Translations under genes and position numbers: made by a program | Shown: in pieces, positions 4,592 to 44,047 of the stretch | Numbering within the stretch: the stretch's first letter is position 1 | Layout: each line of letters opens with the position of its first letter | Source of the DNA: Terriglobia bacterium | Lineage (GTDB): Bacteria; Acidobacteriota; Terriglobia; Acidiferrales; UBA7541 | Assembly (NCBI GenBank): GCA_041490605.1 | Contig: JBGPTK010000001.1 | Location: 1-46,506, forward strand | Direction of reading: 5' to 3' | Length of the DNA stretch: 46,506 bases | Notes under the pieces: generated by a model | The model's input: only the letters and a program-made list of their open reading frames with translations | What the model was told of the DNA's origin: nothing | The model's database searches: none

Positions 4592-4677
4592 GATCTTCTC
4601 CGCCTTTCCGCCCGGCCTGTAAGCCGGCGCCATTCGCTTCTCGTTCCGTCTCGAATGCCTTCAGCAGTTCGCTGCGC

Positions 4678-18880: not shown

Positions 18881-18904
18881 CGGCCCGCCGAAAGCGACGC
18901 ACCT

Positions 18905-19381
18905 GTGGAACCGCAAGACCTGGCGAACGGCACGGTTGTATCCAAAGTCCGGGCGTGGGACGCTCACGCGATTGCGGAGACGATTGTCTTCCGGAATGAA
19001 TTGACGCTGGTGATCCCGCGGGAGCGGCTGCGAGCGGTGGCGGAATTTCTGCGCGATGATGCGGAACTTCGATTCAACTTACTCTCCGATATTACGGCCA
19101 CGGATCGCTTTCCGATCGAGCCTCGTTTCGACCTGAACTATCAATTGCTCTCTTTGAGCCGGAAAGAACGGCTGCGATTGAAGGTCCATTTGGCCGGGAA
19201 CGACCCCGTGGCGGCTTCGGTGGTATCGGTGTGGCCGGGAGCCAATTGGCACGAGCGGGAAGTGTGGGATCTTTTCGGAATTCGCTTCGAAGGCCACCCG
19301 GACCTGACGCGCATCCTGATGCCGGACGATTGGGAAGGGCACCCGCTGCGGAAGGATTATCCCGTGGAAGGATATCGCTGA
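18905..19381 (+). CDS. nuoC: NADH-quinone oxidoreductase subunit C (copy 1)
   Basis: 158 aa. ANWHEREVWDLFGIRFEGHPDLTRILMPDDWEGHPLRKDY. GTG start 24 nt after the nuoA stop. No nuoB lies in between. Confidence 0.92.
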   Translation: MEPQDLANGTVVSKVRAWDAHAIAETIVFRNELTLVIPRERLRAVAEFLRDDAELRFNLLSDITATDRFPIEPRFDLNYQLLSLSRKERLRLKVHLAGNDPVAASVVSVWPGANWHEREVWDLFGIRFEGHPDLTRILMPDDWEGHPLRKDYPVEGYR

Positions 19382-19410
19382 GAGATGACCGGCGTTAGGA
19401 ACAACGAACT

Positions 19411-22421: not shown

Positions 22422-22427
22422 GGATTC

Positions 22428-25870: not shown

Positions 25871-26361
25871 GCGTGGAATTGATTTTGTTTTTCGCGTGCG
25901 CGATTCTGGCCGTTGCGGGCGGAGTAATGCTGATTTTTCTGCGCGAGCCGATTCACAGCGCGCTGTCGCTGATCCTGGTGATGATTTCCCTGGCGGTGCT
26001 TTACCTGCTTCTGGGCGCCGAATTCATTGCCGCGATTCAGATCATCGTGTATGCGGGCGCGATCATGGTGCTATTTGTGTTCGTGATCATGCTGCTGAAT
26101 GCGGGCGAAGAAGAGCGCACTAACTTCAGCCGGATCGCGAAATTTGCCGGCGTGCCGTTGGGAATTTTTTTGACGCTCGAGCTGGCATGGGTGATCCACG
26201 GCGCTATTGGAAAGATGCTGGCCGCTCCATCCGGAGCGGTTTCGACGCGGGAACTTTCCCTGCTGCTTTTCCAGACGTATGTTTTCCCGTTTGAAGCGAC
26301 GTCGATTTTGATTTTGATCGCGATTTTGGGGGCCGTGGTGCTGGCCAAGAGGGATTTCTAA
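25867..26361 (+). CDS. nuoJ: NADH-quinone oxidoreductase subunit J (copy 1)
   Basis: [23 protein letters not shown]...[28 protein letters not shown] overlap with the nuoH stop. No nuoI lies between H and J. Confidence 0.92.
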
Positions 26362-26362
26362 A

Positions 26363-26665
26363 GTGGTTCCCATCTCCTACTACCTGATTTTGAGCGCGAT
26401 TTTGTTCGGGCTGGGAGTGCTGGCGTTTGTATTCAAACGCAACATCATCACGATTTTCATGTCCATCGAGCTGATGCTGAACGCGGTGAATCTTGCGTTC
26501 GTGGCGTTCAGCCGGATGCTGGGTCAGTTGGATGGGCAGGTGTTCGTGTTTTTTGTGATTGTGGTGGCGGCGGCGGAGGCCGCTGTGGGGCTCGCGATCA
26601 TCATCCAGATCGCGCGCAACCGGCAGACGCTGAACGTGGAACGCGTGAATACGCTCAAGCTCTAA
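26363..26665 (+). CDS. nuoK: NADH-quinone oxidoreductase subunit K (copy 1)
   Basis: 100 aa. [18 protein letters not shown]...[12 protein letters not shown]. Confidence 0.94.
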
Positions 26666-28704: not shown

Positions 28705-28708
28705 CCGA

Positions 28709-30334
28709 ATGGGCCAAAATCATTTGTTATCGGTGCTGATCTTCCTGCCGCTGGTGGGGTCGCTGGCGGTGTTGCTGCTGGGGCGCGACGATCACGAGTG
28801 GGTGCGGCGGCTGGCGCTGGCCACATCAATCGCCGAATTCGTGATTTCGCTGTTCCTGCTGCGTGGATTCGACATGGGCTCGGGGGCCTACCAGCTCGAA
28901 GAATTTCACCGCTGGATCAGTTCGCCGCCGATCCACTACCACCTGGGAATCGACGGGATCAGCCTGTTCCTGGTGCTGCTCTCGACGTTCCTGACGCCGT
29001 TCGCGATTCTGTGCTCTTGGACGAGCATCCACGTGCGGGTGAAGGAATTCTTCATCATGCTGCTGGTACTGGAGACGGGCATGATCGGCGTGTTCGTGGC
29101 GCTGGACCTGTTTCTTTTCTTCTTGTTCTGGGAAGTGATGCTGCTGCCGATGTATTTCCTGATCGGCATCTGGGGCCACGACCGGAAAATTTACGCGGCG
29201 CTGAAATTTATTTTGTACACGATGGCCGGGTCGATTCTGATGCTGGTGGCGATCGTTTGGCTGTACGGGCTGACCGGGTCGTTCGATCTGCCGGAAATCC
29301 AGATGAAGCTGCAGAGGAGCATCGTGATGCTGCCGGCGGGCACGGAATTGCTGCTCTTCGGGGCGTTCTTCCTGGCGTTCGCGATCAAGGTGCCGATCTT
29401 CCCGGTGCACACCTGGCTGCCGGACGCGCACACGGAAGCGCCGACGGCGGGCTCCGTGATTCTGGCTGGCGTGCTGCTGAAAATGGGGACGTACGGCATG
29501 CTGCGCTTCTGCCTGCCGCTGTTTCCGGATGCGGCGCACCGGATGGCGCCGTATATCGCCGTGCTGGCGATCATCGGGATTATTTATGGCGCGCTGGTGG
29601 CGACGGTGCAGCACGATTTGAAACGGCTGGTGGCTTACACGTCGATCAGCCACCTGGGCTTCGTAGTGCTGGGCATTTTCGCGTTCAGTAATATTTCGAT
29701 TCAGGGCGCGATCTATCAGATGCTGAGCCATGGCATTTCGACCGGCGGGCTGTTCCTGGCGGTGGGAATGCTTTATGACCGGCGGCACACGCACGAAATC
29801 AAGGAATTCGGTGGGCTGGCGACGCCGATGCCGGTCTTCGCTTCCCTGTTTTTGTTCATCTGTTTTTCATCGCTGGCGCTGCCGCTGCTGAATGGATTCG
29901 TGGGCGAATTTTTGATTTTGACGGGCACGTGGCAACGCCATGCAAGCTGGGCGGCATGGGCGGCCACTGGTTCGATCTTGTCCGCGGTTTATTTGTTGTG
30001 GGCTTACCAGCGAGTGGTGTGGGGTGAAGTGACGGTGGAGAAAAATAAGACCTTGCCCGATGCGTCGACTCGCGAGCGTCTGATCCTGGCGCTGATTTGC
30101 CTGCTGGCGCTGTTCATGGGCGTGGCCTCGCCGCTCTTCACGCGGCGTATGGAAGCTACCAGCCAGAATCTGCTGCAACAGATGCAACGCAACCGCGCTT
30201 ACGATGCCCGCGGCGCCGCTCCCGCGGGGATGCCGGAACATTGCGACATGCCTGCGATGGCTGCCGCGCCAGCGCTGGCGTCCGCGCAGGTTGCTCGGCA
30301 CGATTCCGTTCCGGAAAGGCGGGCACAGAACTAA
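28709..30334 (+). CDS. nuoM: NADH-quinone oxidoreductase subunit M (copy 1)
   Basis: 541 aa. WLPDAHTEAPTAGSVILAGVLLKMGTYG, AYTSISHLGFV. Confidence 0.95.
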   Translation: MGQNHLLSVLIFLPLVGSLAVLLLGRDDHEWVRRLALATSIAEFVISLFLLRGFDMGSGAYQLEEFHRWISSPPIHYHLGIDGISLFLVLLSTFLTPFAILCSWTSIHVRVKEFFIMLLVLETGMIGVFVALDLFLFFLFWEVMLLPMYFLIGIWGHDRKIYAALKFILYTMAGSILMLVAIVWLYGLTGSFDLPEIQMKLQRSIVMLPAGTELLLFGAFFLAFAIKVPIFPVHTWLPDAHTEAPTAGSVILAGVLLKMGTYGMLRFCLPLFPDAAHRMAPYIAVLAIIGIIYGALVATVQHDLKRLVAYTSISHLGFVVLGIFAFSNISIQGAIYQMLSHGISTGGLFLAVGMLYDRRHTHEIKEFGGLATPMPVFASLFLFICFSSLALPLLNGFVGEFLILTGTWQRHASWAAWAATGSILSAVYLLWAYQRVVWGEVTVEKNKTLPDASTRERLILALICLLALFMGVASPLFTRRMEATSQNLLQQMQRNRAYDARGAAPAGMPEHCDMPAMAAAPALASAQVARHDSVPERRAQN

Positions 30335-31819
30335 ATGCGCCCACCGATCGAAGACGTATTCCGCCTGGCTCCCGAAATCGTCCTGTGCTTCACCGGCATT
30401 TTGATCATGCTGGTGGACCCCTTTGTTTCCGCAAAAAATAAGAAGTTCATGGGCTGGGTGGGATTTGCAGGAGCGGTTGTGGCGCTGGCTTCGATTTTCG
30501 AAGCCGCGCGGCATCAGGGAGCGGCTTATGGCGGGCTGATCCTGACGGACCACTTCAGCCTGTACATGCACGCGGTGGTGATTGGCGCGGCCGCGTTGGC
30601 GATTCTTGGATCGTTCACTTACCTGGAACGCGAAAAGCTGGTGCGGGGCGAATATTATTCGCTGATTTTGTTTGCCACCGCGGGAATGGGAATTCTGTGC
30701 GGCGCGGGCGAACTGGTGACTGCCTTTATCGGGCTGGAGATGAGCTCGATTTCGAGCTATATCCTGGCGGGCTTCCGGCGCGACGCGATCAAGTCCAATG
30801 AAGCCTCGCTGAAATATTTTCTGCTGGGTTCGTTCGCGACGGCGTTTTTTTTGTATGGCACGGCGATGGTGTATGGCGCCACGGGAACCACGCGATTCGA
30901 GGGAATCGAGAACGCGGTTGCCCGGCCGGGAGCGGGGACGCTGCTGGTTTTGGGCCTGGTGCTGCTGTTCGCCGGCCTGGGATTCAAAATTGTAGCCGCG
31001 CCGTTCCAGATTTACGCGCCGGACGTTTACGAAGGCGCGCCGACGCCGGTGTCGGCCTTGCTGGCTTCCGGGCCGAAGGCTGCGACGTTCGCAGTGATGC
31101 TGCGGATTTTTTATGTGGCGTTTGGAGGTTCGAACAGCATCTGGTATTGGGCGATTTGGATTGCCGCGGTGCTTTCGATGTGCGTGGGAAATTTTGGGGC
31201 GCTGGTGCAGACGAACGTGAAGCGCATGCTGGCGTATTCTTCGATCGCGCACGCGGGCTACATCCTGGTGGCATTCGCGGCCAGCACGAAGCTGGGAATC
31301 GCGGCGGTTTTATTCTACCTGGCGGCCTACGCGCTGATGAAGCTGGGGGCGTTCGTGGCGGTGGCGCACCTGGGCGGCGCGGGCGAAAAGCGATTGGATA
31401 TCAAGGATTATGCGGGCCTTTCGACACAGCAGCCGTGGCTGGCGGCTTGCTTCGCGCTGTTCCTGTTTTCTCTGCTCGGAATTCCCGGGACTGGAGGATT
31501 CTTAGGCAAATTTTATGCATTCCAGGCGCCACTTCTTGCCGCGCGGGAAGTGACGGCGATGGCGTCGCCCCACGTGGCCAGTTCCCTGGTGTGGCTGGTG
31601 ATCATCGCTGCGCTCAACAGCGTGGTGGGGGCGTATTACTATTTGCGCGTGATCGTCTCCATGTATTTCTGGGAGGCGCAGAAGGAATTTGCGCCGCTGG
31701 AAGTGAGCCCTTCGGTTACGTTTGTGTTGATGATCGCCGCTGCCGGAACCATTTATCTGGGCCTGTTCCCGAACCAGGTGATGAGCTTCGCGCAGCTCTC
31801 CGCGCTTTCGCTACACTAG
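30335..31819 (+). CDS. nuoN: NADH-quinone oxidoreductase subunit N (copy 1)
   Basis: 494 aa. APFQIYAPDVYEGAPTPVSA, MLAYSSIAHAGYIL. Confidence 0.95.
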   Translation: MRPPIEDVFRLAPEIVLCFTGILIMLVDPFVSAKNKKFMGWVGFAGAVVALASIFEAARHQGAAYGGLILTDHFSLYMHAVVIGAAALAILGSFTYLEREKLVRGEYYSLILFATAGMGILCGAGELVTAFIGLEMSSISSYILAGFRRDAIKSNEASLKYFLLGSFATAFFLYGTAMVYGATGTTRFEGIENAVARPGAGTLLVLGLVLLFAGLGFKIVAAPFQIYAPDVYEGAPTPVSALLASGPKAATFAVMLRIFYVAFGGSNSIWYWAIWIAAVLSMCVGNFGALVQTNVKRMLAYSSIAHAGYILVAFAASTKLGIAAVLFYLAAYALMKLGAFVAVAHLGGAGEKRLDIKDYAGLSTQQPWLAACFALFLFSLLGIPGTGGFLGKFYAFQAPLLAAREVTAMASPHVASSLVWLVIIAALNSVVGAYYYLRVIVSMYFWEAQKEFAPLEVSPSVTFVLMIAAAGTIYLGLFPNQVMSFAQLSALSLH

Positions 31820-31976: not shown

Positions 31977-32011
31977 AAGGCCCGGAACTCGCTTTGCGAA
32001 TTCCGGGCCTT
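31977..32011. terminator. Bidirectional intrinsic-terminator-like hairpin between the convergent nuoN (copy 1) and atpE
   Basis: AAGGCCCGGAA ctcgctttgcga ATTCCGGGCCTT. It is followed by TTGAATTTTA on the + strand and by TTCTGTTTTC on the - strand. Confidence 0.6.
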
Positions 32012-32045: not shown

Positions 32046-32354
32046 CTACTTCACGCGGATGAACATGGTGGCGAAAGTATACAGCGCCATGGACTCGATC
32101 AATACCAGCGCCAAAATGAGCATGTTGGTGATGGCCTTGGCCGCGCCCGGATTGCGCGCCATGCCTTCGGAAGCAGCGGCGCTGGCTTTCGCCTGTGCGT
32201 AACCACCGGCCGCTGACGCGATGGCCATGCTGAAGCCCGCGGTGATCACCACCCAGTTCGGGCCCGCGCCCGGCGCTTCATCGGCGGCAAAAACCGTCGG
32301 TGCAAACAAGCTGATGGCCAGGACGGCCAGCAGCACCACGGCAAACTTTCTCAT
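32046..32354 (-). CDS. atpE: F-type ATP synthase subunit c with signal-peptide-like N-terminal extension
   Basis: 102 aa. Hairpin core ...GMARNPGAAKAITNMLILALVLIESMALYTF (carboxylate E). N-terminus MRKFAVVLLAVLAISLFAPTVFA-AD. GAGGAG RBS. Confidence 0.88.
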   Translation of the reverse strand: MRKFAVVLLAVLAISLFAPTVFAADEAPGAGPNWVVITAGFSMAIASAAGGYAQAKASAAASEGMARNPGAAKAITNMLILALVLIESMALYTFATMFIRVK

Positions 32355-32444
32355 CGTTGTTTCTCCTCGTTATAAAGTAGCCGCCAGGCGGTGGCTCCCG
32401 TCATCCTCGTACAGACGGGATCACATTGACGGCGATGATGCCGG

Positions 32445-32482
32445 TATGAATTCTAGAAACCAATATGAATTCTAGAAACCAA
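32445..32482. repeat. Perfect 19-bp tandem direct repeat (x2) in the atpB-atpE spacer
   Basis: TATGAATTCTAGAAACCAA at 32445-32463 and again at 32464-32482. It is AT-rich and contains the palindrome TTCTAGAA. Confidence 0.9.
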
Positions 32483-32555
32483 GAGGGCGCGGCTCTTCGA
32501 GGCTCAGGGTAAACGTGAAGCCGGCCCCTACATCAACTTCAACTGCATAACTATA

Positions 32556-33368
32556 CTAGTGCTCTTCGCCTACTGCGCCGGCCACATAGATGACCGGGAG
32601 AATCGTAAACACGAACGCCTGCAAAACCGCCACGAAAATGTGCAGGACGATAAAGATCACCGGAACACCCAAAGGCAGAACCACGGCCGCGTAACCAGTG
32701 ACATTCAGTTTGCCCAGGAAAATGAAAAGCTCGAGCAACAGGCCCAGGAAGATTCCATAGAGCAATTCGCTGACGAACATGTTCACCCAGAGACGGACGG
32801 TGAGCGAGAGCAGCCGGGCGAAGTTGCTGATGATCTCGATGGGCAGCATGATTGGCGACATGTAGACATTCGGCCCCAGGAAATGCTTGGCGTGGCCGAG
32901 CGGCCCGTGATGGTGAATCCCGCACCAGTTGTAATAAACAAAAACCACGATGGCCAAACCGAACGGAACGGAAACCTGCGCCGTGGGCGATTCGAGAGTG
33001 GGAATCAGGCTGATCAAGTTGCACATCAGCACGAAGATCCCGATGCTGCCGAGCATTGGCAGATAGCGAATCCCGTTGTGCCCGATGTTGTTTTCGAGCA
33101 GATCGAGCACGCCCAGATCGAGCGGATTCTTCAGGATCATTTCCATGCATTGCTGCGTGGCGCCGGGGCGTTCCACGGAGAGCCTGCGCTTGAGCCACAG
33201 AAAGAAGACGATCGCGACGGCGAAGACCAGGACCTCCATCGCGACGTGATTGGGAATTGGATAAGCGGCGTTCTCCGGCTTGATGTGCATCGCCGAAAGG
33301 ATGGCGGCGACGGGCTTGCCGAACAGACGGTTGAGGAGCGCAGTGATCCAGAGTACGTGTTCTTCCAT
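32556..33368 (-). CDS. atpB: F-type ATP synthase subunit a
   Basis: 270 aa. ARLLSLTVRLWVNMFVSELL (essential Arg helix), multiple TM segments. Confidence 0.9.
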   Translation of the reverse strand: MEEHVLWITALLNRLFGKPVAAILSAMHIKPENAAYPIPNHVAMEVLVFAVAIVFFLWLKRRLSVERPGATQQCMEMILKNPLDLGVLDLLENNIGHNGIRYLPMLGSIGIFVLMCNLISLIPTLESPTAQVSVPFGLAIVVFVYYNWCGIHHHGPLGHAKHFLGPNVYMSPIMLPIEIISNFARLLSLTVRLWVNMFVSELLYGIFLGLLLELFIFLGKLNVTGYAAVVLPLGVPVIFIVLHIFVAVLQAFVFTILPVIYVAGAVGEEH

Positions 33369-33395
33369 GTCCCTTGGTTGAATCCGTTTGGATTT

Positions 33396-33839
33396 TTATG
33401 AGCGGCCCGCGCGATCGGGCAAATGCTCGACGAGATAATAAATCATTTCCGCCAGAGCGCCGGCCACGGCCGCAAACAAGCCGCACAGCACCGCCGCCGC
33501 AGGCCATCCCGGGCGCGAAAGAATAGCATACAGCACAATGATCAGCAAAACGAAGCGGCCCAAGGACTTAAAGTAAACACTCTTGGGGATCTGGACTTTT
33601 TCCTGCCCCGCCTGCGCTTCGGAAAGCGCCGCCAGCACGCCCACGCCCTGCTTCAACCAACGGAAATTCACCCAGGAGATTACCGTGCCAAAGCAAACAC
33701 CCGCTGCCTGGACCCAGCCCCACCGGCCGGCGGCAAACGTGGCAACCAGAAGGCCAAAACCCAGGGTCCAATACTCGACGCGGAGCAAAGAAAATTCGGG
33801 GAGGCCGTCACGCGCTGCCGTTGGATTTTCCGTCTCCAT
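33396..33839 (-). CDS. atpI: ATP synthase protein I (AtpI-like)
   Basis: 147 aa, 4 hydrophobic helices, located directly upstream of atpB. Overlaps the upstream gene by 32 nt, so the start is uncertain. Confidence 0.6.
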   Translation of the reverse strand: METENPTAARDGLPEFSLLRVEYWTLGFGLLVATFAAGRWGWVQAAGVCFGTVISWVNFRWLKQGVGVLAALSEAQAGQEKVQIPKSVYFKSLGRFVLLIIVLYAILSRPGWPAAAVLCGLFAAVAGALAEMIYYLVEHLPDRAGRS

Positions 33840-34074
33840 TATTTTTATCTTCGCGGTTGAGCGCCCGCAGCAACTGGTAGATCCCCGCCAGGAAGCCGAC
33901 CCCTCCTAAGATTAGCGTAAAGGCGGGGCTGGTATGCAGCCAGCGGTCTAAAAGGTAACCGATACCGCCGCAAATGAGGATGCTGCCGACGAGGATGACG
34001 GGAAGCTCCATCACCAGGGCAATCTGGCGCGCCGAGCCGGAAACTTTTTTCCCGATGGAATCTGGGGGAGGCAT
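33808..34074 (-). CDS. atpZ: AtpZ/ATPase_gene1-like small membrane protein
   Basis: 88 aa. ELPVILVGSILICGGIGYLLDRWLHTSPAFTLILGGVGFLAGIY pattern. Starts 12 nt downstream of the nuoN (copy 2) stop. Confidence 0.6.
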   Translation of the reverse strand: MPPPDSIGKKVSGSARQIALVMELPVILVGSILICGGIGYLLDRWLHTSPAFTLILGGVGFLAGIYQLLRALNREDKNNGDGKSNGSA

Positions 34075-34086
34075 TCGGCCTAGGGC

Positions 34087-35556
34087 TCAGCGGCCCAAAA
34101 CGCCGAGAGAATATTGCGCGAATTCGATGAACGGGTTGGGGTAGATGCCGGCGGCGAGCGTGACGATCCCCATGGCGGCGAGTGCGACTGCCTGCCCCAG
34201 CGACACGCGAGGTATGAAAGAATCCGTGGAATCGCGCACCCACATGGCCGCGACGATCCGGAAGTAATAATACACCGCCGGGAGAATATAGAGCACGGCG
34301 AGGATCGCCAGGACGTAGTGCTGCGTTTCCATCAGCGCCCAGAAGATCAGCAGCTTGCCGATGAAACCGGCCGTGGGCGGAATTCCGGCGAGCGAAAGCA
34401 GGAAAATCAGCATCAACATCGCGGCGCCCGGATTGCGCTGGAATAATCCATTCATATCGTCGAGTTCGTCGCCGATCACTCCCTTGCGGCGCAAGACGAT
34501 CACCACGGCGAACGCGCCGGTATTGAAGAAGGCGTAGACGAGAATGTAGAACGTCATGGCCTCCAGGCCCAGAGTATTGCCCGCCACCAGGCCCAGCAGG
34601 ATATATCCCACATGCGAAATCGAGGAGTAGGCGAGCAGGCGCTTGATATTGGACTCGGTGATGGCCGCGATGTTGCCGAGGGTCATCGAAAGCACGGCGA
34701 CGGCGGCGATCAGCATGGTCCAATCCACGCGGATGGGCCAGAAGACGGTAAGGAACAGGCGCAGCAGCAGCGCGAAGCTCGCGGCCTTGGACGCCACGCT
34801 GACAAACGCGGTGATGGGAGTGGGCGCGCCTTCGTAAACGTCCGGCGCCCACTGGTGGAACGGCACAGCGGCGATTTTGAAGAAGACGCCGGCGGCGACG
34901 GTGACCAGCGCGAGGATCACCAGCACGTCGCTGGGGGGGCGATGGGCTACTTCCGCGCGAATCACGTCCAGATTCGTGGAGCCGGAGATTCCATAGAGCA
35001 GCGAAAAGCCGTAGGCGAGGATGGCCGAACTGAAGGCGCCGAGCAGAAGATACTTCAGCGCGCCTTCATTCGAGCGCCGGTCGTTGCGCAGGAATCCGGT
35101 GAGGATGTAAAAGCTGATGGCCATCGTTTCGAGACCGATGAAGAGCACGATGAGGTCGGTGCCGCAGGCGAGGAACATCATGCCGATCGTCGCGAACAGC
35201 ATTAGCGCGTAATATTCGGCGTGGTGCTCTTTTTCGATTTCCAGGTAGCGCACGGAAAGCAGGATCACCAGCGCGGCCGCAGCCAGGAAGACGAAGCCGA
35301 AGAAAATGAAAAACGGGTCGATGACGATCGAATTGTTGAATCCCTTTACACCGTTGGCCGGAACGTAACGGAGCATGTAGAGGGAAATGCCGCTGAAAAT
35401 TACTCCCAACATGGCGGTGAGCGCGTTCACCCACTTTTCACGCTCTTCCAAGAGAAAATCGATCAGCAACACGCCCATGCCGAAGAAAGCAAGCTGCACT
35501 TCCGGCAGGATCAGGTGAAACTGTTGCCGAGTTTGTTGGAAGAGTTCTTGCCACAT
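34087..35556 (-). CDS. nuoN: NADH-quinone oxidoreductase subunit N (copy 2)
   Basis: 489 aa. VPFHQWAPDVYEGAPTPITAF, LLAYSSISHVGYIL. Confidence 0.94.
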   Translation of the reverse strand: MWQELFQQTRQQFHLILPEVQLAFFGMGVLLIDFLLEEREKWVNALTAMLGVIFSGISLYMLRYVPANGVKGFNNSIVIDPFFIFFGFVFLAAAALVILLSVRYLEIEKEHHAEYYALMLFATIGMMFLACGTDLIVLFIGLETMAISFYILTGFLRNDRRSNEGALKYLLLGAFSSAILAYGFSLLYGISGSTNLDVIRAEVAHRPPSDVLVILALVTVAAGVFFKIAAVPFHQWAPDVYEGAPTPITAFVSVASKAASFALLLRLFLTVFWPIRVDWTMLIAAVAVLSMTLGNIAAITESNIKRLLAYSSISHVGYILLGLVAGNTLGLEAMTFYILVYAFFNTGAFAVVIVLRRKGVIGDELDDMNGLFQRNPGAAMLMLIFLLSLAGIPPTAGFIGKLLIFWALMETQHYVLAILAVLYILPAVYYYFRIVAAMWVRDSTDSFIPRVSLGQAVALAAMGIVTLAAGIYPNPFIEFAQYSLGVLGR

Positions 35557-35565
35557 GGGCGGTGT

Positions 35566-37137
35566 CTACCTGCTCTCCGGGGTCTGCGCCGCGGCCGGAG
35601 CTGGAACCTGAGCCGGCGGAGCAGGCGGTTGCGATGTGTAATAGCCCGGATTCACTTTCTCGACGAGCTGGCGCACGGGAGCGTCGAGCACGCGGAAGAG
35701 CGGCTTGGGATAAATGCCAATCCAGAAGGCGAGCAGGATCAGCGGGGCCAGGGTGGCCCATTCGCGCAGATTCATGTCGGGCAAGTGCTCATTGGCCGGG
35801 TTGGTCACGCTGCCGAACATGACGCGCTGGTAGAGCCACAGCAGGTAAGCCGCGCCCAGAATTACGCCAGTGACGCCGAAGGCCGCCCAGGTCAAGCCGT
35901 AGCGCGGGACTTCAAACGTGCCGCGAAGAATGGTGAACTCACCGATGAATCCATTCAGCAGCGGCATGCCCAGCGAACTGAGGGTGACGATCATATAAAC
36001 CACCGCGAAATTCGGCATCGGCGTGGAAAGCCCGCCAAACTCCGAAATCAATCGGGTGTGCCGCCGTTCGTATAACACGCCCACCAGCAGGAAGAGCGCG
36101 CCCGTGGAGATGCCGTGATTGAGCTGCTGAATGATGCTGCCGGAGAGTCCCAGCGGGGTGAGCGCGAAAATTCCCAGGGTGCAGAAACCCATGTGGCTGA
36201 CCGAGGAATAGGCGATCAGTTTCTTCATGTCTTTCTGCATCATGCAGACCAGCGCGCCATAAATGATGGCGATGATGGAAAGAACCATCATGATTCCGCG
36301 GAACTGATTGGTGGCATCGGGGAACATGGGCACCGAAAAACGCAGGAATCCATACGTTCCCATTTTCAGCAGGACGCCGGCCAGGATGACGGAACCGGCC
36401 GTGGGCGCTTCGGTGTGCGCGTCGGGCAGCCAGGTGTGGAACGGAACCATGGGCACCTTGATCGCGAAGGCGAAAAAGAAACCCCAGAAGAGCCAGCGCT
36501 GCAATTGCAGTGGAAAGAAATCGTGCGGCGCGGAGAGCACGGTGCGGATATCGAAAGTGTGCGCGTTGAAATAAATCGCCAGAATGGCCAGGAGCATCAC
36601 CACCGAGCCGGCCAGGGTGAACAGGAAAAATTTGATGGCGGCGTAGAGACGGCGCTCGCTGCCCCACACTCCGATCAGAAAGTACATGGGGACCAGCATC
36701 ACTTCCCAGAAAACGTAGAACAAAACGAAATCGAGCGAGGTGAAGACGCCCAGCATGCCGGTCTGCAGCAGAAGAAGGAGAATGTAGTATTCCTTCTCGC
36801 GTTTTTGAATCGCGCTCCACGAGGAGAGAATAGCGATCGCCCCGAGCACGGTGGTGAGAATGACCATCACCAAGCCCAGACCGTCGATGCCCAGCGTATA
36901 GTGCGCGCCGATGGTGGGAATCCAATCGTGGTCTTCGACGAACTGGAAGCCCGTCTGGCCGGCCTGGAACCGGCAAATGAGCGGCAGCGAAACGAGGAGG
37001 CCCAGGAAGCCGAAGAGGTTCCCCATCCAGCGGTGCGCCGCGGCGTTGCTGCGCGGAATAAACAGCATCAGAATCGCGCCCGCCAGCGGCGTGAAGAGCA
37101 CGGTGCTCAATATGTGCTGATTATCGAAAAGCATCAT
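35566..37137 (-). CDS. nuoM: NADH-quinone oxidoreductase subunit M (copy 2)
   Basis: 523 aa. WLPDAHTEAPTAGSVILAGVLLKMGTYG, AYSSVSHMGF. Confidence 0.94.
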   Translation of the reverse strand: MMLFDNQHILSTVLFTPLAGAILMLFIPRSNAAAHRWMGNLFGFLGLLVSLPLICRFQAGQTGFQFVEDHDWIPTIGAHYTLGIDGLGLVMVILTTVLGAIAILSSWSAIQKREKEYYILLLLLQTGMLGVFTSLDFVLFYVFWEVMLVPMYFLIGVWGSERRLYAAIKFFLFTLAGSVVMLLAILAIYFNAHTFDIRTVLSAPHDFFPLQLQRWLFWGFFFAFAIKVPMVPFHTWLPDAHTEAPTAGSVILAGVLLKMGTYGFLRFSVPMFPDATNQFRGIMMVLSIIAIIYGALVCMMQKDMKKLIAYSSVSHMGFCTLGIFALTPLGLSGSIIQQLNHGISTGALFLLVGVLYERRHTRLISEFGGLSTPMPNFAVVYMIVTLSSLGMPLLNGFIGEFTILRGTFEVPRYGLTWAAFGVTGVILGAAYLLWLYQRVMFGSVTNPANEHLPDMNLREWATLAPLILLAFWIGIYPKPLFRVLDAPVRQLVEKVNPGYYTSQPPAPPAQVPAPAAAQTPESR

Positions 37138-37210
37138 CCGTTCTTCCTCGCTTACTCAGAATCCTGTGCCGAGCGCCCGGAAACTTCGCGGAACCGTCAA
37201 TGACCCGCAA

Positions 37211-39247
37211 TTAGAGATGAAACATGTGCCAGTAATAGCCCAAAATGCCGATGATTCCGAGCACGATCAGCAGCATGTAACTTTGCACCAATCCTGTCTG
37301 CACCATCCGCACCGGATAGCTGAACACCCACACCAGCCTCGAGACCAGGCGGATCGAGCCGTCCACAATCCAGGTGTCCCACCACATTGAAATGCTGGAA
37401 ATAAATCGCGTGAGCCAGCCCGCGCCATCCACGCCCAAGCCGTCGATCACTTTTGCGTCAAAAACGGCGAGCGAAGCAGCCAAATCCTTGGCGCGATTGA
37501 CGAACATCGCGTCATAAATTTCGTCCACGTAATATTTGTGGAAGACAAGCTGATACAAGCCATTCCATTTCTTCGCGAGTTTGCCGGGCAAATCGGTGCG
37601 CTTCAAGTAGAAATGCCAGGCCAGAGCGATGCCCGCGAGAGCCACGAACACCGAAAGCGACATGAGCAAGAAGTCCGGCGCTTCCACGCGTGATGTTTGC
37701 TCTTCGCGGAGGATGCTGGCGCCATGGATGACCGGGGCCAGAAAACCTTCGAAGCGCCCGCCAATTCCCACCCAGCCTCCGGCCACGGAGAGCACCGCGA
37801 GAATTATCAGGGGAATCGTCATGGTGGCGGGCGATTCGTGGATGTGATGCTCCACGTCATGCGGCACGCGCGATTCGCCATGGAAGGTCAAGAAGAGCAA
37901 GCGGAACATATAGAACGCCGTGATGCCCGCCGTGATCCATCCCACCAGCCAAAGAAGGTGGCCGGTCTGAAACACTTTGGCCAGGATTTCATCCTTGCTG
38001 AAAAATCCAGCGAGCGGCGGGATGCCGGAAATGGCAAGCGTGGCGGCGAGCATCGTTCGATAGGTTGTGGGGATTTTCTTCGAGAGCGCGCCCATTTTCT
38101 GCATGTCCTGCTCGCCGGACATGGCGTGAATCACGCTGCCCGCGCCGAGGAAGAGCAGGGCCTTGAAGAAGGCGTGGGTCATCAGATGGAAAATTCCAGC
38201 TTCATAAGCGCCCACGCCGCAGGCCAGGAACATGTAGCCGAGCTGTGAGATGGTGGAATAGGCGAGAACTTTTTTGATGTCGGTCTGCACCACGCCCATG
38301 GTGGCGGCGTAGATCAGCGTCATCGCGCCGACCACGGCGACAATCTCCATGGCGAAGGGCGCCATTTTGTAGATGGCGTTGGTGCGCGTGAGCATGTAGA
38401 CGCCGGCAGTGACCATGGTGGCGGCGTGGATCAACGCGCTGACCGGTGTGGGGCCTTCCATCGCGTCGGGCAGCCAGACATACAGAGGAATCTGCGCCGA
38501 TTTTCCCGTGGCGCCAAAGAAGAGCAGCAGGGCGATGGCCGTCATGACCGACGAGCCGATTACGAAATGCCCCGCGGTGATCGCAGCGGGAATTTCCGAG
38601 AAGCGGATGGTGCCCAGGACGCCGGAAATCATGAAGATTCCCAGCAGGAATCCGGCGTCGCCCACTCGATTGACGATGAAAGCTTTTTTGCCTGCGTCCG
38701 CCGCTGATTTTTTCTTGAAATAGAAGCCGATCAGCAGGTAGCTGCAGAGCCCGACGCCTTCCCACCCGACGAACAGCAGGAGCAAATTGTTGGCCAGCAC
38801 CAGGGTGAGCATCGCAAACATGAACAGGTTCAGGTAGCCAAAGAAGCGGTAATATCCGCCCTCGTACCCCATGTAGCCGATGGAATAGAAATGGATCAGG
38901 AAGCCGACCCCGGTGACCACCAGGATCATCACGCTGGAAAGCGGGTCGAGCAGGAAGCCCCAATCGGCGTTGAAATTGCCGAGCAGGCCGGACGTGGTGT
39001 GATAAACACCGGCGGGAACCCATTGGAAGAGAACAGTCTCGAAGAATCGGGCGTGGGGAGGGCGGGCGACCAATTGCAGCACGGCGCCCAGCGAGTAGAT
39101 GAAGGAGGCGAACACGCTGCCGACGCAGATCACGCTGACCGCAATGTTCGCGAGGCGCCGGCCGAAGAGCAGCATGAGCAGCGCGCTGGCCAGCGGAAAC
39201 AGCGGAATCAGCCAGATGTGGTTGAGAAAATAGCCTGCTTCGTTCAT
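37211..39247 (-). CDS. nuoL: NADH-quinone oxidoreductase subunit L (copy 2)
   Basis: 678 aa. GWEGVGLCSYLLIGF, WLPDAMEGPTPVSALIHAATMVTAG, HAFFKALLFL. Confidence 0.94.
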   Translation of the reverse strand: MNEAGYFLNHIWLIPLFPLASALLMLLFGRRLANIAVSVICVGSVFASFIYSLGAVLQLVARPPHARFFETVLFQWVPAGVYHTTSGLLGNFNADWGFLLDPLSSVMILVVTGVGFLIHFYSIGYMGYEGGYYRFFGYLNLFMFAMLTLVLANNLLLLFVGWEGVGLCSYLLIGFYFKKKSAADAGKKAFIVNRVGDAGFLLGIFMISGVLGTIRFSEIPAAITAGHFVIGSSVMTAIALLLFFGATGKSAQIPLYVWLPDAMEGPTPVSALIHAATMVTAGVYMLTRTNAIYKMAPFAMEIVAVVGAMTLIYAATMGVVQTDIKKVLAYSTISQLGYMFLACGVGAYEAGIFHLMTHAFFKALLFLGAGSVIHAMSGEQDMQKMGALSKKIPTTYRTMLAATLAISGIPPLAGFFSKDEILAKVFQTGHLLWLVGWITAGITAFYMFRLLFLTFHGESRVPHDVEHHIHESPATMTIPLIILAVLSVAGGWVGIGGRFEGFLAPVIHGASILREEQTSRVEAPDFLLMSLSVFVALAGIALAWHFYLKRTDLPGKLAKKWNGLYQLVFHKYYVDEIYDAMFVNRAKDLAASLAVFDAKVIDGLGVDGAGWLTRFISSISMWWDTWIVDGSIRLVSRLVWVFSYPVRMVQTGLVQSYMLLIVLGIIGILGYYWHMFHL

Positions 39248-39270
39248 TCCCTCTCGCTCAACACTTGCCC

Positions 39271-39386
39271 CTGTTCGTCATTCCGAAGGGTGATGCATCC
39301 CCCGAGGAATTCCCATGGTGCTTGTCCAATTCACGCAAACTCGGGATGCTTCGCTGCGCTCAGCATGACGGCTTAGTGCCAATTCC
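39271..39386. repeat. REP/MITE-like ~115-nt element, family 2, in the nuoL-nuoK spacer (copy 2 operon)
   Basis: ctgttCGTCATTCCGAaggg...cccGAGGAAT...AATTCACGCA...GGATGCTTCGCTgCGCTCAGCATGACGGc..tGCCAATTCC. Collinear with 43527-43640. The ends are imperfect inverted repeats (CGTCAT.../...ATGACG). Confidence 0.7.
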
Positions 39387-39393
39387 CATGCGG

Positions 39394-39696
39394 CTACCAC
39401 TTCAGCAAATCCATTTCGTCAGCCAAGACGGTTTCGCGATTGCGGAAGAAAGCGATGATAATTCCCAGGCCGACCGCCGCTTCCGCCGCCGCGTCGGTGA
39501 TGATAAAAATCGCGAAAATCTGTCCGTTCACGGAGCCGAACATGCGCGAAAACGCGACCAGGTTGATATTCACCGCGTTCAAGATCAGTTCGATGGACAT
39601 CAGAATAATGATCACGTTGCGCCGGGTGAGCACGCCGACGACGCCGATGGTGAAGAGCGCCAGGCTCAAGAACAAATAATGAGTGGTCGGAATCAT
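39394..39696 (-). CDS. nuoK: NADH-quinone oxidoreductase subunit K (copy 2)
   Basis: 100 aa from ATG 39696 ([15 protein letters not shown]...[18 protein letters not shown]...[12 protein letters not shown]). The ORF-track N-terminal extension overlaps nuoJ and is not credible. Confidence 0.92.
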
Positions 39697-39698
39697 CC

Positions 39699-40214
39699 TC
39701 AAATTCTCCGCTTGGCCATCACCACCGCGCCGATCATCGCCACCAGCAGCAGGATGGAGGCGATCTCGAACGGCAGCATATAGTTTTGGAACAGGGCCTG
39801 CCCGATCATCTCGGAATTCGGCTGCATCGTGGCGGCGGACGGCGGAGGCAAATTCACGACGCCGCGATCCAACCACAACGGCAACGAAAAATGTATTCCC
39901 AGAACGATGGCCAGCACCGTGGCCACCAACCACTGGCGGTTGAACTGGAGCTGATGCAACGAAACATCCAGGTTCACCAGCATGATCACGAAAACAAACA
40001 GCACCATGATGCCGCCCACGTACAAAATGATCTGGACGACGAAGAGGAACTCCGCTTCGAGCTGCAGATAAATGCCCGCTGTGGCGAGTAGCGAGGTAAT
40101 CAAGAAAATCGCGCTGTGAATCGCGCTGCGGCTGACGACCACCAGGATCGCGGAGACCACGGCCAGCGCGGCAAAGAAGTAAAATACGATTTGGGGCAAC
40201 AAACCGTTCGCCAC
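39699..40214 (-). CDS. nuoJ: NADH-quinone oxidoreductase subunit J (copy 2)
   Basis: 171 aa. [26 protein letters not shown]. The GTG start directly abuts the nuoH stop. No nuoI. Confidence 0.92.
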
Positions 40215-41549
40215 TTAATCACCATCCAATGCGGAAGGAATTGGGAGCGCGGCGCCCGGACGGGGACGCTCGACGGCCAGCCAGGCCGCAACCGCGAGCG
40301 TGATCAGATTCGTCAATAAAAGGGCAGGCGCAAGCCCCCAGCCCATTTCCCGATACAGTGCCAGCGCTATTCCGGTTGCGATCACATTCACCAGCGCCAG
40401 AGGAATCAGAAAACTCCAGCCAAGGTGCATCAATTGATCGAAGCGATAGCGCGGAAAGGTAAACCGGAACCACAAGAATCCATACAAGTAGACCAAAACC
40501 TTGGCGATGAACCAGAACGCGCCGTGCACGCCTTCCCGAATTCCAGGCGCGGCTGCGGCGGACCATCCCATCACTGCCGCCAGCAATAACATCAGAGCAC
40601 CGGCTGCGGCCATCACCAATTTCTGAACCGGCACCGGCTGCCGGGGTGCCAGCCGGAAGCAATAGAGAGCGACAACCAGAAATGCAAGCGCGGGGATCAG
40701 ATCCATCATCTCAATATCCGTGGCAGGCACACGCAAGTGGACTCTCGCGAGAGGCCGCAGCCATCCGCCCAGGAACAAAGTGGTGGCAATTCCCGCCACC
40801 ACGATCATGTTGGCGTATTCCGCCAGAAAATAAAGCGACCAGCGAAAACCGCTGTATTCGGTCATGTAGCCCGCGACGAGTTCGGACTCCGCTTCGGGCA
40901 GATCAAACGGCGCGCGATTCGTCTCCGCGATCGATCCCACCAGGTAAATAAAAAATGCGATGGGCGCCAGGAAAATAAACCACAGGCCGGCGTGAGCTTG
41001 CGATTCCACAAGTCCCTTCATGGAAAGAGTTCCGCCCAGCAACAAGGCCGAAACCAGGGCCAGCCCCGCCGCCGTCTCGTAACTGACAAGTTGAGCGGCG
41101 CTGCGCAGCGCGCCCATCAGGGAATAATGGCTGTTCGAGGCCCAGCCTCCCAGAACGATTCCATAAATCCCCATCGAGCTGACCGCCAGGATGAAGAGCA
41201 AACCGACGTTCAAATCCGCGATTTGAAAGACAGGGCCGAACGGCAGAGCGGCATAGGCGAGCATCCCGGCGGTGACGGAAAGCAAAGGGGCCAGCAGGAA
41301 AATTGCTTTGTCCGCTTCGTCGGGGATGATGTCTTCCTTGATCAGCAGCTTTACCGCATCGGCGATGGGCTGCAGCAAGCCGTGCGGCCCAACGCGCATC
41401 GGGCCGAGCCGCGCCTGCATGTCGGCCATCACTTTGCGTTCCAGCAGGACGATATAGCCGGCGAGCAAAGGCAGCACCAGCACAATCACCACGGCGTATA
41501 TCACCGGGAGAATGTAGGGCCGGATCGGCTCTAGGCTGTGCAAGTCCAT
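40215..41549 (-). CDS. nuoH: NADH-quinone oxidoreductase subunit H (copy 2), long form
   Basis: 444 aa. [55 protein letters not shown]. Has extra hydrophobic segments and a C-terminal tail. Confidence 0.92.
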
Positions 41550-41583
41550 CGTGTCAGCGCGAGATGAGCTCTTTCCTTTTCAT

Positions 41584-42726
41584 TCAGCGATCCACTTCCC
41601 CCAGGACAATATCAATCGTGCCGATGATGGCCACCACGTCGGCCACCAGCGAACCCGCGGCCATCTTGTCGAACGCCTGTAAATTGACGAAGGATGGCGG
41701 CCGCACGCGCACACGGTAGGGCTGCGTGGTTCCATCGCTGACGATGTAATAGCCGAGTTCGCCCTTGGGCGCTTCAATCGCGTGGTAAACCTCGCCGGGC
41801 GGCGGCTTCAGCACCTTGCCAATGCGAGCCATGATCGGGCCGGTGGGAATATTTTCAATGGCCTGCAGGCAGATCAAGCGCGATTGACGCATCTCTTCCA
41901 TGCGGACCAGGTACCGGTCGTAAGTGTCGCCGTTCTTCCCGATGGGGATTTCGAATTCATATTGATCGTAGGCGGCGTAGGGCATGGCCTTGCGAATGTC
42001 CCACTGGACTCCACTCGCGCGCAACACCGGGCCCGTGACGCCGAGGGCGATCGCATCTTCCGCCGAGAGCAAACCGACATTTTTCGTGCGGCCCACCCAG
42101 ATGCGATTTTCAGTCAGCAAAGTTTCGTATTCGGCGACTTTGTGCTCGAAGTCGTCGCAGAAACGCTTCACTTCCTGCTCGAAGCCGTCGTAGGTCTCGT
42201 ATTGCAGCCCGCCGATGCGGAAGGCGTGGGTGGTCAGCCGCGCGCCGCAATACTTTTCGAAAATTTTCAGGATTTCTTCGCGCTCGCGAAAGCAATAAAA
42301 AACGGGCGTCAGCGCGCCGATATCGAGAGCGTGGGTCCCCAGCCAGAGCAAGTGGCTGGCGATTCTTTGCAACTCGGTGAGAATCGTGCGCACCACGCGG
42401 GCGCGCAGCGGCGCCTCGACACCCATCAGCTTTTCTACCGCCTCGCAGTAGCCCAGTCCGTTCGAAACCGCCGCGACGTAGTCCATGCGGTCCACATAGG
42501 GCGCGAATTGCTGGTAACTGCGATGCTCGGCGATTTTCTCGACGCCGCGATGCAGGTAGCCGATGATGCATTCCGAACCCATGATGCGTTCGCCGTCGAG
42601 CTTCAACTTGACGCGGAGCACGCCGTGCGTGGAGGGGTGCTGCGGCCCCATATTGAGGATGATTTCGTCAGCGCCCAGCACCGTTTCGGTGACGTTGGGG
42701 TAACCGGTTTTGCGCGAGTCCGCCAT
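41584..42726 (-). CDS. nuoD: NADH-quinone oxidoreductase subunit D (copy 2)
   Basis: 380 aa. [33 protein letters not shown]. Followed after 34 nt by nuoH, with no E, F or G. Confidence 0.94.
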
Positions 42727-42729
42727 GTT

Positions 42730-43449
42730 CTATTGGCCGCTCTCGATTCCGAGATTTTCTTTCACCCAGGCGGTGTCCTGCTTCAAGATGTCGTAATCCT
42801 TCCGCAAGGGGAAACCCTGCCACTCTTCGGGCAGCAGGATTCGCCGCAAATCGGGATGTCCTTCGAAGACAATTCCGAACATGTCGTAAGCTTCGCGTTC
42901 CAGCCAATTGGCCGTGGGCCAAACGGCTACGACGCTGGCGACCGGCTCGTTTTCGCCGACAAAAACCTTCAGGCGAAGCCGCTCATTTTTCTGGAAGGAA
43001 TAGAGATTCAGGATCAGGTCGAAGCGCCGTTCGCGCTTGGGCCAATCTACGGCGGTGAGATCGACGAGATAATCGAATTTTTCTTCGTCGCGGCAATACA
43101 TCACCACATCGAGCAACTTTTCGCGCGCGACGATCAGGATCGCTTGTTTGCGGTCCAGCCAGGCTTCTGGAATTGCGGCGGAGCCGAATCGCTTTTGGAA
43201 ACGCTGCGTCAATTCGTTATCGAGCGGGACAGGCTTGGGCGGCGCTTCCTTGGGAGGCGCGGCCGGCTTGGGCGGTGCGGCAGCAGCCGGAGGAGCGGCG
43301 GGCTTGGCCGCAGCAGGAGGCGTAGCAGCAGGCGGCGCAGCGCTCGTCGGCGCGGGTGCATCGGGTGGAGATGCGGGTATGCTTTCAGGCGGCCCGGCGG
43401 GATTCGCCGGGACGGCGTTGGGATCTTTTTGCGAGGGATCGTTGGCCAT
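42730..43449 (-). CDS. nuoC: NADH-quinone oxidoreductase subunit C (copy 2) with ~75-aa Pro/Ala-rich N-terminal extension
   Basis: 239 aa. [40 protein letters not shown]. The N-terminus is [60 protein letters not shown]. Confidence 0.9.
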
Positions 43450-43526
43450 CTTGTTTAGGGTAAAACAGATAAGACTAAACGCGGCCCCTACCTGCCGCGC
43501 AATAACTACTCGTCCAGCGTTTGGCT

Positions 43527-43640
43527 CTGTTCGTCATTCCGAGGGCCGAAGTTTGGCCCGAGGAATCCCGAGTTGAGTGCTAATTCACGCATGCGCTGGA
43601 TGCTTCGCTCCGCTCAGCATGACGGCGTACTGCCAATTCC
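43527..43640. repeat. REP/MITE-like ~115-nt element, family 2, in the nuoA-nuoC spacer (copy 2 operon)
   Basis: ctgttCGTCATTCCGAgggccgaagtttggcccGAGGAAT...AATTCACGCA...GGATGCTTCGCTcCGCTCAGCATGACGGc..tGCCAATTCC. Same orientation as 39271-39386. Confidence 0.7.
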
Positions 43641-43663
43641 AAACCATCTTCAACGCGACTGGA

Positions 43664-44047
43664 TCACACCCAATCCAGCGCGCCTTTCTTGTACAGCCAG
43701 ATATATCCCACCAATAAAATCCCGATGAAAACCAGCATGGTGACGAGCCCGTACATTCCCATCGCCTCGCCTTTGGTGGCTGAGATGGAGCCGTACTTGA
43801 TCGCCCAGGGGAACAGAAAAATCGTCTCCACGTCGAAAATCACGAACAGCATGGCGATGATGTAAAAGCGCACCGAATAGCGCCCGCGCGAGCTGCTTTC
43901 GGCCGGGACGCCGCATTCATAGGGCTTGAGCTTATCTCCCACCGCGTGCATGGTTGGCCGGATCAGCTTGAATACAAAGAGCGTGACGGCCGGAAACGCC
44001 GCCGCGAGTATCGCGAAAATAAAGATCGGAATGTATTGGCCTGGCAT
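43664..44047 (-). CDS. nuoA: NADH-quinone oxidoreductase subunit A (copy 2)
   Basis: 127 aa. YECGVP...FYIIAMLFVIFDVETIFLFPWA...LYKKGALDW. Confidence 0.92.
   Translation of the reverse strand: MPGQYIPIFIFAILAAAFPAVTLFVFKLIRPTMHAVGDKLKPYECGVPAESSSRGRYSVRFYIIAMLFVIFDVETIFLFPWAIKYGSISATKGEAMGMYGLVTMLVFIGILLVGYIWLYKKGALDWV

Follow-up and report, generated by a model that had tools for sequence, protein, structure and literature searches.

A nuo operon without nuoB and nuoI beside atpZIBE in a Terriglobia bacterium: probably an ordinary second complex I isoform

Introduction

All peatland acidobacterial metagenome-assembled genomes (MAGs) described by Hausmann et al. (2018, ISME J, PMC6018796) carry at least one nuoACDHJKLMN operon, one of which usually includes nuoEFG, and their ATP synthase genes come consistently in two sets, atpZIBE and atpF'FHAGDC. 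Here we examine a locus of this kind in a 46.5-kb stretch of DNA (the window) from a Terriglobia bacterium, contig JBGPTK010000001.1. It consists of nine nuo genes in the order A-C-D-H-J-K-L-M-N, followed by atpZ, atpI, atpB and atpE. We call it operon 2, since the window holds another nuo operon, operon 1, and we distinguish the paralogous subunits as, for example, NuoD1 and NuoD2.

How do the described loci read, gene by gene? In Candidatus Sulfotelmatobacter SbA1 (PMC6018796, Suppl. Tables S2b/S2h) nuoA is SBA1_530011, nuoC is _530014 and nuoD-N are _530015-21, followed by atpZ (_530022), atpI (_530023), atpB (_530024) and atpE (_530026). SbA7 has the same nuo-atpZIBE run of locus tags in the same tables. 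Hausmann et al. tabulated this layout and left the nuo-atp junction without comment (PMC6018796). For the NDH-I of Acidobacterium capsulatum (PMC11636273, Table S3) the entries are ACP_0296 for nuoA, 0295 for nuoC, 0294 for nuoD, 0292-0290 for nuoE/F/G, 0289 for nuoH and 0288-0284 for nuoJ-N; the rows for nuoB and nuoI are empty, and expression lies at hundreds to thousands of transcripts per million. By locus-tag numbering, A. capsulatum atpE and atpB (ACP_0283 and ACP_0282) adjoin this operon, and they are expressed (PMC11636273). A 2025 survey with hidden Markov models credits most Acidobacteriota with a complete set of Nuo subunits, often in split clusters; the acidobacterial layout without B and I is discussed neither there nor in Spero 2015 or Degli Esposti 2015.

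The layout of operon 2 is ordinary for Terriglobia and is already in the literature. The initial annotation, made from the letters of the window, had presented it as something new. This does not hold: the layout is documented for the lineage (the tables of PMC6018796 and, in part, A. capsulatum, PMC11636273), which is the very finding that annotation had named as telling against its own case. We consider it likely that the locus is the standard second complex I isoform of the Terriglobia, in which the NADH-oxidising module is absent and NuoB and NuoI come from unlinked single genes, and which stands beside atpZIBE.

Results

Gene content of the two operons

Gene identities were taken from the list of open reading frames (ORFs) and from Pfam scans. 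The operon 2 locus extends over 32046-44047 on the minus strand and contains, from nuoA onwards, the following genes (lengths in amino acids, aa).

43664..44047, minus strand: nuoA, 127 aa, PF00507 (E=6e-32), 41% identical to NuoA of operon 1
42730..43449, minus strand: nuoC, 239 aa, PF00329 at residues 106-222 (E=6e-46)
41584..42726, minus strand: nuoD, 380 aa, PF00346 (E=2e-105)
40215..41549, minus strand: nuoH, 444 aa, PF00146 (E=9e-116)
39699..40214, minus strand: nuoJ, 171 aa, PF00499 (E=3e-38)
39394..39696, minus strand: nuoK, 100 aa, PF00420 (E=4e-29), start placed as on the same-strain contig L002
37211..39247, minus strand: nuoL, 678 aa, PF00361, PF00662 and PF01010
35566..37137, minus strand: nuoM, 523 aa, PF00361 (E=2e-78)
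34087..35556, minus strand: nuoN, 489 aa, PF00361 (E=2e-75)
33808..34074, minus strand: atpZ, 88 aa, PF09527 (E=1e-13), beginning 12 nt past the nuoN stop
33396..33839, minus strand: atpI, 147 aa, PF03899 (E=5e-9), overlapping atpZ by 32 nt
32556..33368, minus strand: atpB (Fo subunit a), 270 aa, PF00119 (E=2e-45)
32046..32354, minus strand: atpE (Fo subunit c), 102 aa, PF00137 at residues 37-99

All the membrane-arm subunits, NuoA, H, J, K, L, M and N, are thus present (Pfam E 6e-32 to 9e-116), and the thirteen minus-strand genes that the initial annotation had recognized agree in identity and position with the ORF list and Pfam. Its spacer values are likewise exact (C/D 3 nt, D/H 34 nt, H/J 0, J/K 2 nt, N/atpZ 12 nt), but its description of the spacers as short does not apply throughout: the exceptions are A/C (214 nt), atpB/atpE (201 nt), K/L (146 nt) and L/M (73 nt).

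Operon 1 is convergent with operon 2.

18506..31819, plus strand: operon 1, nuoA-C-D-EF(fused)-G-H-J-K-L-M-N, without nuoB and nuoI
20607-22421, plus strand: fused nuoEF of operon 1, 604 aa, a 2Fe-2S thioredoxin-like domain joined to the 51-kDa FMN and 4Fe-4S domains
22428-24707, plus strand: nuoG of operon 1

Paralogues of the two operons share 41-58% identity and hence go back to an old duplication.

Subunits missing in cis

Could nuoB and nuoI lie elsewhere in the window? A tblastn search of all frames of the 46.5 kb with E. coli NuoB and NuoI returned nothing (E>0.6), and when acidobacterial NuoB and NuoI served as queries, nothing in the window matched at 1e-6. In the same kind of search nuoE, nuoF and nuoG were confined to operon 1, at 20.6-24.7 kb. 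That operon 2 lacks E, F and G, and lacks B and I just as operon 1 does, is therefore upheld by tblastn. We also considered, and rejected, the idea that nuoB or nuoI is hidden by fusion to another subunit: the N-terminal 100 residues of NuoC2 are Pro/Ala low-complexity sequence, the insertion in NuoH has no Cys motifs, and tblastn was negative.

The two proteins named here have features of their own. The Pro/Ala-rich N-terminal extension of NuoC2 (about 100 aa, 43150-43449) is probably disordered; NuoC1 is without one, and the NuoC2 relatives have similar gene-call lengths, 239-259 aa. Compared with E. coli NuoH, both NuoH paralogues (40215-41549 and 24665-25870) have about 50-80 extra residues inserted near E. 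coli residues 264-270.

Conservation and selection

If five genes are absent, is operon 2 still a working gene set? One genome per GTDB species was scanned with NuoD2, and 80 loci (75-92% identity) were fetched and annotated locally by comparison with the proteins of the window and with E. coli NuoB, I, E, F and G. Their record titles are nearly all Terriglobia or Acidobacteriota; five are named after other phyla, which we read as mislabelled MAGs. Apart from the Acidobacteriaceae-type operons, loci that are long enough keep the order A-C-D-H-J-K-L-M-N followed by atpZ-I-B-E, and many of the 80 resemble the window in having the convergent operon-1 nuoN beyond atpE. No nuoB lies within 10 kb of the operon-2 orthologue in any of the 80. 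Beyond this set, NuoD2 has hundreds of homologues at 86-99% identity, those with names being MAGs of Candidatus Acidoferrales, Acidiferrales or Acidoferrum, and the exact NuoD2 protein occurs with unchanged flanking genes on a JGI soil metagenome contig and in the NCBI MAG GCA_041478095.1.

A nuoI between H and J is found in only seven of the 80 loci, titled Acidobacteriaceae, Bryobacterales or (uncultured) Acidobacteriota. These seven have no nuoB, no nuoA with one exception, and no atp genes after nuoN, save one with atpB further downstream; fragmentation of the operon has thus taken different courses in different families. The orthologous C-D-H-I-J-K-L-M-N operon, with nuoI kept and nuoB absent, was seen in L065, L066, L069, L074, L077, L079, L081 and L084-L086; L065 is the only such locus with nuoA, and the only one with atpB further downstream.

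Might operon 2, as one copy of a duplicated nuo operon, be a mere remnant, decaying or silent, after the loss of B, I, E, F and G? Of the 14 canonical genes it does lack five, and two of the spacers hold copies of a repeat. Against this, all the ORFs of operon 2 are intact, the nine nuo genes among them, with lengths matching those of the orthologues; gene order is conserved across the 80 loci; the catalytic residues of NuoD are retained; and the essential atpZIBE genes follow immediately downstream on the same strand. The ratio of nonsynonymous to synonymous substitution rates (dN/dS), computed pairwise against four relatives and approximate because dS is near saturation, lies at 0.04-0.25 in all nine nuo genes as well as in atpB and atpE; atpI and atpZ reach 0.3-0.45. 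These values point to purifying selection and retained function. We regard a remnant as extremely improbable.

NuoD2 and the nature of the enzyme

What kind of complex would such genes encode? By alignment NuoD2 retains the quinone-site His (in STHG) and Tyr (in RMDY). It has no cysteines that could serve as NiFe ligands and no CxxC at either end. Its nearest solved relative is the NuoCD2 of Aquifex (7q5y_B, E=5e-121); matches to Mbh and Mbs, at E=2e-41 and 2e-60, are far weaker than those to NuoD of complex I. We could thus rule out a Mrp antiporter or an energy-converting hydrogenase of the Mbh type: NuoD2 has no CxxC, NuoC and NuoD are present, and the Mbh/Mbs matches are the weaker ones.

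NuoD2 is without a segment of 25 residues (after residue ~309) that is found in NuoD1, in E. coli NuoCD and in Aquifex NuoCD2. The deletion is common to all 80 orthologues, as their ungapped alignments show, and it might reflect the loss of a contact with the N-module. The Mbh and Mbs homologues also align unbroken across the deletion point.

A further possibility is that the operon-2 complex truly has no NuoB or NuoI, and that NuoA/C/D/H/J-N form a redox-independent, Mrp-like ion translocator functionally tied to the co-transcribed Fo. Such a complex would fit the absence of B and I in cis from every Acidoferrales-like locus examined, the tight and conserved linkage to atpZIBE, and the peculiarities of NuoD2 (minus 25 residues) and NuoC2 (plus its disordered extension). 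It fits poorly with a NuoD2 that keeps both quinone-binding residues and is 58% identical to NuoD1, with a lineage that has an intact stand-alone nuoB bearing all the N2 ligands, and with the orthologous Acidobacteriaceae-like operons, which still have nuoI between H and J. We know of no complex I relative without NuoB and NuoI homologues, and we hold this possibility to be very improbable.

Unlinked nuoB and nuoI

Where, then, are nuoB and nuoI? A small alignment of NuoB proteins (Thermus, mitochondrial, E. coli) was scanned against JGI metagenome contigs, and the best 80 loci, those closest to Thermus Nqo6, were taken. In 31 of these 80, with a G+C content of 0.55-0.63 and in many cases on contigs of several kb or more, nuoB has no adjacent nuoA, nuoC or nuoD. 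All 31 stand-alone proteins retain the four cysteines of cluster N2, namely the tandem Cys, the third Cys and the C-terminal Cys. They fall into four or five sequence groups, with about 90% identity inside a group and 75-82% across groups. In groups I, Ib, II and IV nuoB stands between a Zn-alcohol dehydrogenase gene and an opposite-strand GCV_T-family gene, and a gene of the metallo-beta-lactamase fold is also part of the neighbourhood; in group III the neighbours encode an ammonium transporter and OmpA-like and BNR proteins. Close homologues of groups I and Ib are named Candidatus Acidoferrales/Acidiferrales. The named members of the 90%-identity clusters are Ca. Sulfotelmatobacter and Terriglobales in group II, and Terracidiphilus and Edaphobacter in group III; group IV and two minor groups carry no taxon name. 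We had to reject the notion that the groups are paralogues dedicated to different operons, since I, Ib, II and IV share their neighbours and three groups track taxa. The stand-alone genes are mostly orthologues of one relocated, monocistronic nuoB.

Do such a nuoB and operon 2 occur in one genome? P0349 (a nuoB) and P0020 (a NuoD2 orthologue, 90% identical) have as their longest contig one of 3,096,523 bp in both cases. On a second contig P0349 is flanked by opposite-strand genes, and P0020 lies in a full A-C-D-H-J-K-L-M-N-atpZIBE locus. Very probably, then, a nuoB of the P0349 type and an operon-2 orthologue are on the same 3.1-Mb contig, and in our view the pair comes close to direct evidence that nuoB lies elsewhere in a genome that carries operon 2. 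For nuoI, a profile built from seven in-operon acidobacterial NuoI sequences was used to search a protein database; it gave no stand-alone nuoI, the top matches checked all being in-operon C-D-H-I-J forms. A plasmid search with E. coli NuoB, meant to yield an acidobacterial seed, returned no Acidobacteria among the organisms listed. The prediction of the initial annotation that NuoB and NuoI are encoded in trans is thus supported by their absence in cis and, for nuoB, by the stand-alone genes of the lineage, but in the lineage nuoI was directly seen only within operons.

One other locus deserves mention. In L126 (1623-2555), a metagenomic contig with a G+C content of 0.67, a nuoI-like gene comes directly after nuoB and no further nuo genes were detected around them; the two are apparently an isolated nuoB-nuoI pair of another organism.

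One shared pair or dedicated partners?

The initial annotation had proposed that the operon-1 and operon-2 sets probably share a single NuoB/NuoI pair, encoded in trans, and perhaps also a single electron-input module (NuoEFG). Three observations are in keeping with such sharing. A single conserved type of stand-alone nuoB locus (Zn-alcohol dehydrogenase, nuoB, GCV_T) was found in Acidoferrales-like sequences among the best 80; the supposed paralogue groups of NuoB turned out to be taxonomic; and in SbA5 the single operon lacking B and I is matched by exactly one nuoB and one nuoI at unlinked positions, besides an in-operon pair in a 2M-type operon (PMC6018796). The other counts from the same source do not bear out a single pair: SbA1 has three unlinked nuoB and two unlinked nuoI, on other scaffolds, for two or three operons without B and I; in SbA3, as in SbA4, two nuoB are unlinked; and SbA7 has one nuoB and three nuoI, all unlinked (PMC6018796). 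Moreover, NuoD, NuoH and NuoA, which contact NuoB, are much diverged between the operons, so that one NuoB fitting both is less likely, and a second, more divergent nuoB could be missed in a set made up of the 80 loci nearest Thermus Nqo6. With two or three unlinked nuoB listed in related MAGs, dedicated NuoB/NuoI partners seem somewhat more likely than one shared pair, which we think rather unlikely.

The nuoN-atpZ junction

Is the ATP synthase half of the locus tied to the nuo half? In 41 of the 42 related species measured, the gap between nuoN and atpZ lies between -23 and +31 nt; the single outlier, at -224 nt, is probably a miscalled start codon. There is no terminator between nuoN and atpZ. 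An intrinsic-terminator-like hairpin stands after atpE, as the initial annotation had it.

31977..32011, minus strand: hairpin of 16 bp, G+C-rich with 10 G-C pairs, followed by a T-run, after atpE

Co-transcription of nuoN with atpZIBE is thus plausible, and because the spacer is only 12 nt, holds no terminator and belongs to a conserved tight junction, read-through from nuoN is likely. An internal promoter for atpZIBE is also likely, since the Fo genes are needed regardless of the operon-2 isoform and atpZIBE stands alone in other Acidobacteria. The further suggestion, that co-transcription coordinates the assembly of proton-pumping and proton-consuming membrane sectors, we regard as speculation: in SbA5, SbA3, SbA4 and the Acidobacteriaceae-like loci atpZIBE does not lie downstream of the operon.

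The atp operon is split, as predicted. AtpZ, AtpI and subunits a and c are encoded here; atpF, H, A, G, D and C, for subunits b, delta, alpha, gamma, beta and epsilon, are not in the window. Read from the sequences, subunit c has the carboxylate of its second transmembrane helix (LIESMALY) and subunit a its conserved Arg (ARLLSLTVRLW). A longer ORF of 318 aa in another frame (32551-33507) was considered as atpB and rejected in favour of the 270-aa ORF. The N-terminus of AtpE, which precedes the Pfam c-subunit hairpin, resembles a signal peptide, MRKFAVVLLAVLAISLFAPTVFA/ADE. At about 32440-32490, within the 201-nt spacer before atpE, the unit TTGGTTTCTAGAATTCATA stands twice in direct tandem.

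The spacer repeat and other features of the window

The two largest spacers between nuo genes, K/L and A/C, are each occupied by a copy of a repeat element.

43509..43640, minus strand: repeat element, copy 1, about 135 nt, filling most of the 214-nt nuoA-nuoC spacer
39253..39386, minus strand: repeat element, copy 2, about 135 nt, in the nuoK-nuoL spacer

The copies have the same orientation and are 74-88% identical. Their core, GCCGTCATGCTGAGCG[G/C]AGCGAAGCATCC, is carried only by same-strain contigs; at up to four mismatches it was not found in about 2 Mb of related loci. Rfam gave no match for the whole window or the spacers, and the folding of both copies as RNA was not significant (z about -1.5). 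The element looks like a small strain-specific mobile repeat or one of the repetitive extragenic palindromic (REP-like) kind.

A scan for sigma-70 promoters returned one weak site, inside nuoD, which is below the number expected by chance. Two genes upstream of the respiratory genes have no bearing on the layout described here: 3431-4633 (minus strand) encodes a baeRF family-10 (release-factor-like) protein, and 5858-8815 (plus strand) a 985-aa Ser/Thr kinase with TPR repeats.

Discussion

How might the enzyme of operon 2 work? Its nine genes would supply the membrane arm (NuoA, H, J, K, L, M and N) and part of the quinone module (NuoC and NuoD). NuoB, with cluster N2, and NuoI, with N6a and N6b, would pass electrons to the quinone; they have presumably not been lost and would be made from separate single genes at unlinked loci, nuoB probably as its own transcription unit between the Zn-alcohol-dehydrogenase and GCV_T-family genes. 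The assembled enzyme would then be A-B-C-D-H-I-J-K-L-M-N, expected to reduce menaquinone and to pump protons. Like other 11-subunit complexes, it could take its electrons from ferredoxin or from some other non-NADH donor; alternatively, they might enter through NuoEFG borrowed from operon 1. The adjacent atpZIBE would provide the Fo half of the ATP synthase, with atpF'FHAGDC elsewhere, as in all Acidobacteria examined so far.

Several points weigh against reading the locus as a standard second isoform. It is known from its sequence, from which transcription, assembly and activity are predicted. The link between nuoB and operon 2, though very probable, is drawn from the matching figure of 3,096,523 bp and not from displayed coordinates. 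A stand-alone nuoI for this lineage comes from published tables only. The multi-copy counts are those of MAGs that are in part contaminated (for SbA1 the figures are 8% contamination and 42% strain heterogeneity; PMC6018796). Finally, NuoD2 is without its 25-residue segment, so the operon-2 isoform may differ mechanistically in ways that are hard to foresee.

A bolder proposal is that the Terriglobia build their complex I isoforms from unlinked modules, two or three operons without B and I drawing on separately transcribed nuoB and nuoI genes, with one NuoB/NuoI pair serving both operons in lineages such as the present one as an independently regulated, limiting connector, and with the EFG-less isoform tied stoichiometrically to Fo subunits a and c by read-through. 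If this were true, the shared pair would cap the amount of either isoform. To our knowledge, subunit sharing between complex I isozymes has been shown in no organism, and we judge the proposal unlikely.

Few soil bacteria are as abundant as the Terriglobia, whose flexible respiration makes them ecologically interesting. The locus is no new kind of system: nuo operons without B and I, unlinked nuoB and nuoI and a split atp are all in published annotation tables. The comparative set assembled here (80 species loci, a conserved nuoB neighbourhood and the 25-residue deletion in NuoD2) is a starting point for work on a cultured relative.

Comparison with known systems

In Aquifex aeolicus the nuo genes are scattered and partly duplicated. 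Its complex I (PDB 7Q5Y) differs from that of operon 2 in having NuoC and NuoD fused and in possessing the segment that NuoD2 is without. The 11-subunit, EFG-less enzymes of Chlorobi, Desulfitobacterium, cyanobacteria (NDH-1) and Campylobacter resemble the product of operon 2 in having no N-module, a donor other than NADH via NuoF, the same membrane arm and NuoC/D; in these, however, nuoB and nuoI (ndhK and ndhI) stay in the nuo/ndh clusters. NUO-2 of Nitrospina gracilis (Luecker et al. 2013, PMC3578206) is likewise a second complex I, with a solitary nuoB beside a nuoACHIJKLMN cluster. It differs in that nuoI is in the cluster, nuoD is with nuoE and nuoG, the phylum is another and there is no link to atp.

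Closer still are the acidobacterial loci. The NDH-I of A. capsulatum shares with operon 2 the empty nuoB and nuoI rows and the adjoining atpE/atpB (by locus-tag numbering), and it is expressed; but, being of the EFG-containing type, it is the counterpart of operon 1, and a further complex of A. capsulatum, of the 2M type, has nuoB and nuoI within its operon. In Ca. Sulfotelmatobacter SbA1 and SbA7 there are one or two extra coding sequences between nuoA and nuoC, where the window has its repeat element, and loci titled Ca. Sulfotelmatobacter have a NuoD about 80% identical to that of the window, which is from Acidoferrales. SbA1 and SbA7 share with the present locus an identical gene order, with atpZ next to nuoN, the placement of nuoB and nuoI away from the operon (on other scaffolds), a second operon with nuoEFG that is also without B and I, split atp genes and a G+C content of about 59%.

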